DNA of 36,264 bases from Candidatus Methylomirabilia bacterium (GCA_041489335.1 JBGPQZ010000002.1:1-36264), one strand, 5' to 3'. Positions 26,903 to 28,026 are shown, numbered from the stretch's first letter. Numbers and translations: made by a program. The notes: generated by a model from the letters alone, not told the origin.

Positions 26903-26933
26903 TAGGGGACGTAGCACGGTTATCACGGTTATT
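26903..26933. repeat. Left terminal inverted repeat of element B (contains the tandem 9-mer CACGGTTAT x2)
   Basis: Read directly from the sequence. The TAA stop of the transposase-like ORF (26929-26931) lies inside it. Confidence 0.85.
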
Positions 26934-27957
26934 CTCGGCTTGCCGCCCCTCTCAGCAAAGCATCGCGCGTCAGGCCATGCAGCGCCATCAACTGCTCGCC
27001 GCGCGGCACCCCCTCCCGCACCACGGTCGCGGACACTCCCAGAGCATGCGCGACCTCCTTGATCGGCAGGCCAACATCGCGTACCGCCAGGCATGCCGCA
27101 ATGGTCCGGGCATGGACCACCACCCGGCGACGGCTACCAGATACGAGTCCCGCAGGCTCAAGCCCAAATGCGTGGGCACACCGGGCAAGAATACTCGGTA
27201 GGGCGGCGAGTGTACCGGCGCGGGTTGCCGATTTCTCTTCGACGGCCACTAGGCGAAGGACCTCCTCCACAAACCCCCCACTCCCCAGGACCCGCTCGTC
27301 GGCCGCCCAGGCCTCCCGCCCGCGCCGGAGGCTCGCGACGTTCTTCCATCCCCCGGCGCTTCGAACCAATCCCCCGCCTTGCAGTTCGGGGCGCCGTCCC
27401 ATCGAGGCGCCCGCGGCCACGAACTCGCAATAGAGGCGGCGCGCTTCGCGGCTCCTCTTCCCGAACCGGCCCAGCACCTCGGCCACAGCCTGCCAAGGTC
27501 GAGGCACCTTGCCCACTACCGCACTGTGGCCCGCCCAGGGGAACCGCTCGAGTTCCGCCATGTCAGCGACAAGGCCAGCCCGAAGTGGATTCAAGTGGAT
27601 GTACCGGACCAGCTCGAGGAGGTACGGCTCCTCCTCGACGAGGATGGACTTGTAGCGATTCTGGAAGAGGTGGCCGCTCCGCCGGTGGCGCCGGTTGAAG
27701 GCCCCCGCATACCCGGTGAGGAGGCAGCGCATCGCACGCACCAAGGGACGCGGTCCCGTGCGGACGAGGAGGTGGGTGTGATTCGGGAGCAGTACCCATG
27801 CCAGCACGGTGAGCCCCGTTGCGCCGACGACGTCGGCGAGTCGGGCAAGGAAATCCGTCCGATCGGCGTCGTCCCGGAAGATGACCTGCCGATCCAGCCC
27901 CCGGACCATCACATGGTGGAGGGCGCCGGATGCATCGAGGCGCGGTCCGCGCGGCAC
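26929..27957 (-). CDS. REP-associated tyrosine transposase-like Y1 HUH nuclease with a C-terminal DnaA-domain-IV-like HTH (paralog of 9071-10084)
   Basis: [18 protein letters not shown], and C-terminal [43 protein letters not shown]. The start is probably the GTG at 27957 ([11 protein letters not shown]), by analogy with copy A. The track ORF starts at the TTG at 27993. Confidence 0.82.
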
Positions 27958-27995
27958 GAAGGGGAGCCTAGCACCGCCCCAAGGGCAGGGCAAGC

Positions 27996-28026
27996 AATAA
28001 CCGTGATAACCGTGCTACGTCCCCTA
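27996..28026. repeat. Right terminal inverted repeat of element B
   Basis: AATAACCGTGATAACCGTGCTACGTCCCCTA, the perfect reverse complement of 26903-26933. Confidence 0.85.

Follow-up and report, generated by a model that had tools for sequence, protein, structure and literature searches.

RAYT-like genes that have long terminal inverted repeats (TIRs) on either side instead of repetitive extragenic palindromes (REPs) were given the names TIRtron and TIRYT in 2013 (Di Nocera, De Gregorio, Rocco 2013, BMC Genomics 14:522, PMC3733652). The unit described here is located at positions 26903-28026, on the minus strand, of a 36,264-nt stretch of DNA from Candidatus Methylomirabilia bacterium (GCA_041489335.1, JBGPQZ010000002.1:1-36264; the whole stretch is called the window). 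It encloses one gene, for a Y1 HUH nuclease with a predicted DnaA-domain-IV-like helix-turn-helix (HTH) domain, within a perfect inverted repeat. We conclude that it is a real, intact member of the TIRtron/TIRYT class.

A GGGGWSAS motif is common to many, although not all, TIRtron repeats and is no requirement, and repeat families have been reported for some TIRYTs (PMC3733652). When the TIRYTs were classified in 2018, most of them were put in TnpA_REP subclass 2.1 (Quentin et al. 2018, BMC Genomics 19:475, PMC6006769), which a later preprint (bioRxiv 10.1101/2020.03.09.984088) regards as equivalent to RAYT Group 1 (Bertels et al. 2017). Subgroup 2.1.2 comprises long proteins with a C-terminal Bac_DnaA_C-like or HTH_23/HTH_28-like domain and GGGG-type flanking inverted repeats (PMC6006769). 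As the GGGG-type consensus is unlike the DnaA box, Quentin et al. left the role of the DnaA-like domain open, and targeting of the replication fork was proposed (PMC6006769).

The unit in the window shares with the described TIRtrons the Y1 HUH gene, the long GGGG-type TIRs, the lack of REP hairpins and the overlap of gene ends and repeats, and, on the protein side, the length, the C-terminal Bac_DnaA_C-like HTH and a serine after the catalytic tyrosine (RYKS). An earlier note on this DNA, made from the sequence alone, knew of no described insertion sequence (IS) family with this combination of features; it is, however, that of the TIRtron/TIRYT class (PMC3733652), and it fits TnpA_REP subclass 2.1.2 (PMC6006769), an assignment that is based on architecture and flanking repeats. 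Two departures were seen. The tip of the repeats, GGGGACGT, agrees with the published GGGGWSAS motif at positions 1-6 and differs at positions 7-8 (G, T), and the host clade is NC10/Methylomirabilota, to which the LigA orthologs assign the organism, with many paralogs per genome. The main texts of PMC3733652 and PMC6006769 do not mention direct repeats, tandem repeats within TIRs, or iterons, so that three observations reported below, namely the subterminal tandem 8-9-mers, the way in which they co-vary with the HTH, and the duplicated tips, add to these studies and do not contradict them.

Our preferred reading of the locus, to which we assign a probability of about 0.65, is that the HTH binds duplex DNA at both iterons of each end and that the neighbouring conserved tip is nicked by the HUH domain, on opposite strands at the two ends, that the element moves without target-site duplication, and that the iterons at the gene start also serve autoregulation.

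Anatomy of the unit and its protein

The unit measures 1,124 bp from repeat to repeat. Its arms, at 26903-26933 (plus strand, gene-3' side) and 27996-28026 (minus strand, gene-5' side), are 31 nt long, 100% complementary and composed of TAGGGGACGTAG-CACGGTTAT-CACGGTTAT-T. On the gene-3' side, the tip at 26903-26914 is followed by direct repeats at 26915-26923 and 26924-26932 and by the final T; on the gene-5' side, the same 31-mer on the minus strand places the direct repeats at 27997-28005 and 28006-28014 and the tip at 28015-28026. With up to 3 mismatches allowed, the 31-mer was found at these two sites only in the 36-kb window, and in 0 of 100 shuffles. The CACGGTTAT 9-mer occurs four times in the window (chance expectation 0.06), always as a tandem pair inside an arm. 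Both the perfect 31-bp inverted repeat and the tandem 9-mer in its inner half had been recognised in the earlier note and are thereby confirmed. In related strains (L084/L085), the outer repeat unit carries one mismatch (CACAGTTAT).

The same note had pointed to GTAG, the 5' end of REPs, as formed by a G preceding the left copy. This is true of the left copy; at the other end the base is an A, and the position is not conserved in the family. The argument is weak, as the G in question lies outside the repeat and the internal CGTAG is the minority form of the family's CGTTG: at position 8 of the aligned ends, A was present in 11 of 72 and T in 49 of 72, making GTAG a minority variant of GTTG. 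Single-strand folding of the element ends gave no structure beyond that of shuffled sequences (z-scores ~0) and no REP-like hairpin.

The TIRYT gene (26929-27957, minus strand) begins with GTG and ends with a TAA stop at 26929-26931, which falls within the left arm. The mechanically called open reading frame (ORF) starts at TTG 27993; GTG 27957, 38 nt from the right arm, gives the N-terminus MPRGPRLD..., which is common to nearly all relatives, and the protein was therefore taken to be 342 aa long. Stop and start are thus those that the earlier note had favoured.

The Y1 HUH nuclease domain (27388-27921, minus strand; approximately residues 13-190) has its HUH motif at H60/H62 (LPNHTHLL) and its catalytic Tyr102 in NRYKS. 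Both motifs, which had been read from the sequence before, are invariant or nearly so in 87 relatives. As the earlier note had proposed, profile searches of the ORF were combined with a structure prediction that covered the C-terminus. Pfam Y1_Tnp (PF01797) was matched with 31.2 bits (cut-off 23), and the NCBIfam equivalog model REP_Tyr_transpos, whose cut-off is 80, with 66.7 bits. Based on the 87 relatives, an AlphaFold model had a mean predicted local distance difference test score (pLDDT) of 80.7, with a confident N-terminal domain (Y1 domain pLDDT ~90 or higher) and a confident helical C-terminal domain. The top Foldseek match of the catalytic domain was 4ER8, the E. coli TnpA_REP bound to a REP hairpin, with a target-normalised template modelling (TM) score of 0.71; next in rank were the ISDra2 and IS608 transposases (2XQC, 2A6M).

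The catalytic domain is followed by a Gly/Arg-rich segment, QGGGL.RS.GGW...RRGRE.WA.DERILG (27226-27375, minus strand; residues 195-244), which is strongly conserved, with many invariant columns across the 87 relatives, and has no confident predicted structure (pLDDT below 50); no Pfam family matched it at E ≤ 1.

The remaining domain (26953-27225, minus strand; residues 245-335) is the one that the earlier note had aligned with DnaA domain IV. With 24.6 bits (E 2.6e-5), Pfam Bac_DnaA_C stayed short of its 31.5-bit cut-off, and a plain BLASTP comparison of the C-terminus with E. coli DnaA domain IV returned no alignment, so that the likeness to DnaA holds at profile and fold level only. At these levels the proposed likeness stands. 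The family profile matched Thermotoga maritima DnaA over ~90 residues, i.e., the whole domain, with an E of 7.9e-5, and the modelled domain resembles the E. coli DnaA domain IV 1J1V (TM 0.78 normalised to the target, 92 aligned columns for 94 residues) and the M. tuberculosis DnaA DNA-binding domain 3PVP (root-mean-square deviation 1.9 Å). The match to DnaA is confined to the domain-IV-like region (residues 245-336), and there is no AAA+ module.

A common plan of the ends and a candidate mechanism

The family is large, with at least 8,000 relatives in a 90%-clustered collection and 1,405 clusters at 50% identity (E ≤ 1e-30). A scan of species-representative genomes gave 416 loci, of which the best 80 were examined; these were mostly from NC10, Desulfobacterota, Nitrospirota and Binatia metagenome-assembled genomes (MAGs). 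In a tblastn search of plasmids, only distant Y1-domain matches and no full-length relatives were obtained. An unbiased inverted-repeat search revealed flanking repeats of 20-33 nt starting with (T)AGGGGACG in ~80% of the 80 loci; most of the loci without flanking repeats are cut by contig ends.

The ends follow a common plan: a conserved tip, (T)AGGGGACG, continues in most cases with TTG (or TAG), and then come two variable direct repeats of 8-9 nt, which differ between paralogous elements. Alignment of the ends on the GGGACG anchor, by which the core is invariant by construction, gave the family profile T-A-G-GGGACG-T-T-G (TAGGGGACGTTG) with T-rich columns at 15-16 and 24-25, corresponding to a period of 9; the family consensus tip here is GGGGACGTTG. 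Tandem direct repeats with a score of at least 4 were present in 41 ends versus 7 shuffled controls. A period of 9 was seen in 24 ends versus 0 shuffled controls and a period of 8, mainly in Desulfobacterota-type loci, in 10 versus 1, i.e., 34 versus 1 jointly. Many repeat units end in TTAT, such as CACGGTTAT, TAGACTTAT, GGTACTTAT and TTCACTTAT.

For 61 non-redundant elements, the divergence of the subterminal repeats was compared with that of the protein by distance correlation and partial Mantel tests. Repeat distance correlated with HTH-region distance at r 0.34-0.39 and with catalytic-domain distance at r 0.13. Controlling for the catalytic domain gave a partial Mantel r of 0.32 (p about 5e-4), and the converse partial r was ~0. 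The left repeat alone, which in this comparison adjoins the catalytic end of the gene and lies ~1 kb from the HTH coding region, gave r 0.36 versus 0.16. Within the C-terminal domain, the fastest-evolving segment (residues 245-272) correlated less than the segments with the basic loop and the HTH. At the level of a single comparison, one related element (L086/L088) has a gene that is only 73-74% identical to that of the window in DNA, and ~69% in protein, yet its 28-30-nt repeat is 100% identical, and so, nearly, is its recognition helix (GVSPTVVRE vs. GVSATVVRE). This co-variation, which is correlative and sensitive to shared ancestry, favours the HTH as the reader of the tandem repeats. The earlier suggestion that a replication-initiator-type HTH could read the 9-bp repeats thus gains comparative support, the repeats being family-wide and tracking the C-terminal, not the catalytic, domain.

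The sequence outside the repeats points to a candidate nick site. Additional copies of the tip in the same orientation were found within 45 nt outside the repeat at 31 of 139 ends, compared with 2 of 139 in control windows and 6 in the opposite orientation; L013, L031, L035, L043, L051, L052, L057, L059 and L079 are among the loci with such duplications. Of the 26 cases that could be measured, 18 show a duplicated unit that terminates directly behind GGGACG or GGGACGT and has a variable 5' limit. The window has a case of its own, a partial tip copy of 10 nt at 28030-28039 (plus strand), just outside the gene-5' repeat, reading CGTCCTATTC after CGTCCCCTATTC. This unit is also present in L001; it is a recent indel, as the 98%-identical loci L084, L085 and L087 are without it. 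A 3' breakpoint that is fixed and a 5' one that varies are the trace to be expected if GGGGACG^T were nicked repeatedly and then repaired incorrectly, which is what we infer.

In the mechanism that we propose, the C-terminal DnaA-domain-IV-like HTH would occupy two duplex iterons per end; the resulting four sites per element would fit a transposase multimer that pairs the ends. Binding would place the HUH/Tyr domain on the conserved tip, where a nick is predicted at or within 1-2 nt of GGGGACG^T, with a 5'-phosphotyrosine link on the strand reading 5'-TAGGGGACG. Because the ends are inverted, the nicks would fall on opposite strands, and a target-site duplication would not be made. The iterons beside the gene start probably let the protein repress its own promoter, an idea whose sole basis is the occurrence of TTGAC or TGnTAnnn motifs after the gene-5' repeat in relatives. 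Protein-specific terminal inverted repeats most likely replace REP or IS200-type hairpins as the bounds of the element.

Mobility and alternative explanations

The closed NC10 genome OY970067.1 carries two identical copies of ~1.09 kb (L051/L052), which are separated by 21 kb and have unrelated flanks and no target-site duplication. At least 10 diverged paralogs, all with repeats of their own, are present in the same genome. For two further pairs of elements, L031/L033 (94% identical) and L024/L032 (87%), homology extends from repeat to repeat only. At the locus under study, LigA orthologs of 81-82% identity have kept the downstream synteny and the ligA promoter; their upstream DNA is unrelated and the element is absent, and homology of these relatives to the window starts within 15 nt of the repeat end. 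The promoter region, at 28041-28095 of the window (CTTGTCAA, 17 nt, TACAAG, then the ribosome-binding site), is retained in L090 and L091 at about 5930-6000. As the conserved promoter region starts within 15 nt of the repeat end, the element lies directly against the promoter of the essential gene ligA, and, as the ligA relatives are without it, it is a lineage-specific insertion just upstream of this promoter. A search for the exact empty site via the ligA orthologs recovered only the absence of the element, because the relatives are distant (81-82% at the amino acid level) and their upstream regions unrelated.

The copies of relatives and the absence at ligA support, by sequence comparison, an element that is mobile or was recently so. 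The earlier note had called the unit discrete and possibly still mobile, and had regarded constant occupancy of the same site in relatives as the mark of a domesticated gene. Its first view is strengthened by a bounded unit, identical copies at two sites of one genome, homology limited to the element and the absence of the element from the ligA loci of relatives. Two contigs from the Logan collection (L003 and L092; 1,116 and 1,113 nt) that end exactly at the repeat tips were considered as evidence of multiple copies or an excised form and rejected, an assembly effect being the simplest reading, since an inverted repeat of at least 30 nt alone breaks a k=31 de Bruijn graph and such contig ends are uninformative on copy number.

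Two side observations were made on relatives. The 94%-identical elements L031 and L033 come from a Chloroflexi MAG and an NC10 MAG, i.e., from different phyla, reflecting either horizontal transfer or a binning error. L038 and L076, from two NC10 MAGs, have 89%-identical upstream DNA, different TIRtron paralogs (~70% identical, with different iterons) and unrelated downstream DNA, which could reflect either a hot spot of insertion or a break in synteny.

Several points weigh against the preferred reading of iteron binding, tip nicking and movement. Those Y1 HUH enzymes that have been characterised to date cleave single strands that hairpins present to them, whereas a duplex repeat would need melting, and nicks on opposite strands do not alone account for the release of a complete copy. 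A literature search found no biochemistry for any TIRYT. Mantel-type tests are inflated by shared ancestry, and fast-evolving protein regions tend to track fast-evolving DNA. A sigma-70 promoter scan of the element in the window found no consensus. The exact repeat is present in only 4 metagenome contigs, two of them the studied locus and two a single related element. The studied copy sits at one site in all 4 assemblies containing it (the window, L001 and L084/L085; 97-99% identical DNA), the window matching contig JBGOWZ010000001.1 of the MAG assembly GCA_041478865.1 at 99.8%. RAYT Group 1 genes are mostly single-copy per replicon, with 6% duplicates (Bertels et al. 2017).

The constant site and the low copy number of Group 1 also speak for the alternative that survives best, namely a domesticated, immobile RAYT-like gene whose repeats are operator or boundary sites, or substrates multiplied in trans in a REPIN-like manner. 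The repeat families of some TIRYTs (PMC3733652) and the solo repeats near other elements and in the window itself, described below, are in line with it. We nevertheless consider this alternative unlikely: identical whole-element copies with unrelated flanks occur in one genome, homology between genomes stops at the repeats, paralogs are many per genome and each has its own repeats, and the orthologous ligA locus of relatives lacks the element. Multiplication in trans is further opposed by the lack of an abundant family of CACGGTTAT-type repeats in the window or the metagenome scan for the exact repeat, which revealed no solo or MITE-like (miniature inverted-repeat transposable element) copies of this iteron class.

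A second alternative, which we judge improbable, is that the DnaA-like domain targets host DNA, i.e., DnaA boxes or the replication fork, with the tandem repeats being incidental. The modelled DnaA domain IV fold would agree with such a role, as would the fork targeting proposed on account of a GGGG consensus unlike the DnaA box (PMC6006769). The iterons are, however, located beside the GGGG tip and not in it, are present at both ends in most members and co-vary with the HTH; moreover, the recognition-helix residues vary widely between paralogs, which is unexpected for a shared host target. That the repeats belong to another system, such as a DDE-type IS, with the Y1 gene as passenger, or arose by chance or misassembly, is very improbable: DDE insertion sequences do typically have terminal inverted repeats, and an IS91 remnant lies next door, but the 1.12-kb unit holds no other transposase gene, no target-site duplication was seen for L051/L052, the same repeat plan accompanies the TIRYT gene family across phyla, and the repeat is present in independent assemblies at a chance expectation of zero.

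Returning to the preferred reading, the locus and its relatives give a concrete model for the role that was left open for the DnaA-like domain, with the two subterminal 8-9-mers as candidate binding sites and GGGGACG^T as candidate nick site, and protein/end pairs that appear orthogonal. The leads added here, namely that the iterons co-vary with the HTH, that duplicated tips point to a candidate nick site and that the family has expanded in NC10, are modest ones. For annotation, such genes should be labelled TIRtron/TIRYT and not 'RayT' or 'IS200 transposase'. The large family is expanded in NC10/Methylomirabilota genomes, and its contribution to their plasticity may be significant and have been overlooked. 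A wider proposal, which we advance tentatively and rate at somewhat less than even odds, is that TIRtrons form a large family of HUH transposons that are autonomous, still active and work on duplex inverted-repeat ends; iterons with TTAT would be recognised by a DnaA-type HTH, and opposite strands would be nicked at GGGGACG^T by the Y1 domain. If true, single NC10 genomes would keep ten or more mutually orthogonal transposase/iteron pairs, and the mode of transposition would be distinct from both the hairpin-guided IS200/IS605 mode and the DDE mode, with its specificity residing in a small, swappable HTH/iteron module.

Neighbouring sequences and comparison with known systems

The window contains a second, paralogous TIRtron at 9040-10128 (minus strand), of which the earlier note had made no mention. 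Its gene (9071-10084) is intact and encodes 337 aa, 59% identical to the first, with the motifs LPNHAHLL and NRYKS and the HTH GQTRGNVSVAAKRG; its repeats are imperfect (9040-9061 and 10107-10128, 19/22), and its iterons are of the GCATTAT class. A solo TIRtron-like end lies 150 nt from this element, at 8845-8890 (plus strand), and has no inverted partner in the window. It consists of AAATGGGGGACG twice, a perfect 12-nt tip duplication, followed by TTG GGGCTTTTT TGACTTTTG with a period of 9. A third, solo repeat with the iterons of the neighbouring element, 0.5-1.2 kb away, was also observed at L030 (-3659), L042 (+3024), L056 (+814), L064 (+798) and L078 (+912). These solo third repeats may be remnants; alternatively, they could delimit larger composite units.

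On its gene-3' side, the first TIRtron is abutted by an IS91-family Y2_Tnp pseudogene (25993-26902; Pfam E 4e-68). Compared with related strains, the window has lost 456 bp of the N-terminal zinc-finger part of IS91 (L084:2230-2685), the deletion starting 7 bp outside the repeat with the imperfect microhomology GTCGC/GTCGTC. Mediation of this deletion by the TIRYT was considered and rejected; its ends lie 7-9 nt from the motifs and share the imperfect microhomology, and it is treated as an ordinary deletion. A GGGGACG at 26884, 21 nt outside the left repeat, was likewise rejected as a tip duplication and is regarded as coincidence, because it is in the IS91 coding sequence and was brought near by the 456-bp deletion.

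Among characterised systems, the REPtrons (RAYT/TnpA_REP; Nunvar 2010; Ton-Hoang 2012; 4ER8; Corneloup et al. 2021) provide the best fold match of the catalytic domain and share the Y1 HUH chemistry and the position of the gene between inverted cognate copies. REPs, however, are GTAG-tagged hairpins that are read as folded single strands and occur in tens to hundreds of copies, whereas the unit described here has no hairpin, an unconserved GTAG, an extra 150 aa with an HTH and an NCBIfam RAYT score below cut-off. With the IS200/IS605 elements (IS608 and ISDra2 TnpA), the likeness is membership at the level of the Y1_Tnp superfamily, HUH and Tyr motifs, the folds 2XQC and 2A6M and the lack of a target-site duplication. 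These elements differ in lacking terminal inverted repeats, in using subterminal hairpins and guide tetranucleotides on one strand, and in a TnpA of about 130-150 aa without an HTH.

DnaA domain IV (1J1V, 3PVP) shares with the modelled C-terminal domain the fold over ~90 residues and the basic RR before the HTH, which is kept here as a nearly invariant GSRRR. The putative targets are comparable as well, being repeats of ~9 bp, and many of the repeat units end in TTAT, the opening half of the DnaA box TTATNCACA. In their second half, by contrast, the units bear no relation to CACA and vary between paralogs, the period is 8 in some clades, and an AAA+ module is lacking.

At the origins of HUH Rep proteins, such as those of rolling-circle plasmids, geminiviruses and circoviruses and the inverted terminal repeat of adeno-associated virus (AAV) with its Rep-binding element plus terminal resolution site, iterons adjoin the nick site. 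In AAV, the nicks in the inverted copies at the termini fall on opposite strands. Rep proteins bind their repeats through the HUH domain itself and depend on a helicase for melting of the site; in the TIRtron, binding would fall to a separate HTH, there is no helicase gene, and the ends lack terminal hairpins. Taken as an analogy only, the tandem short binding repeats beside a conserved, putative nick site give the TIRtron ends a layout that resembles the rolling-circle and parvoviral Rep origins more closely than the hairpin-guided IS200/IS605 or REP systems.

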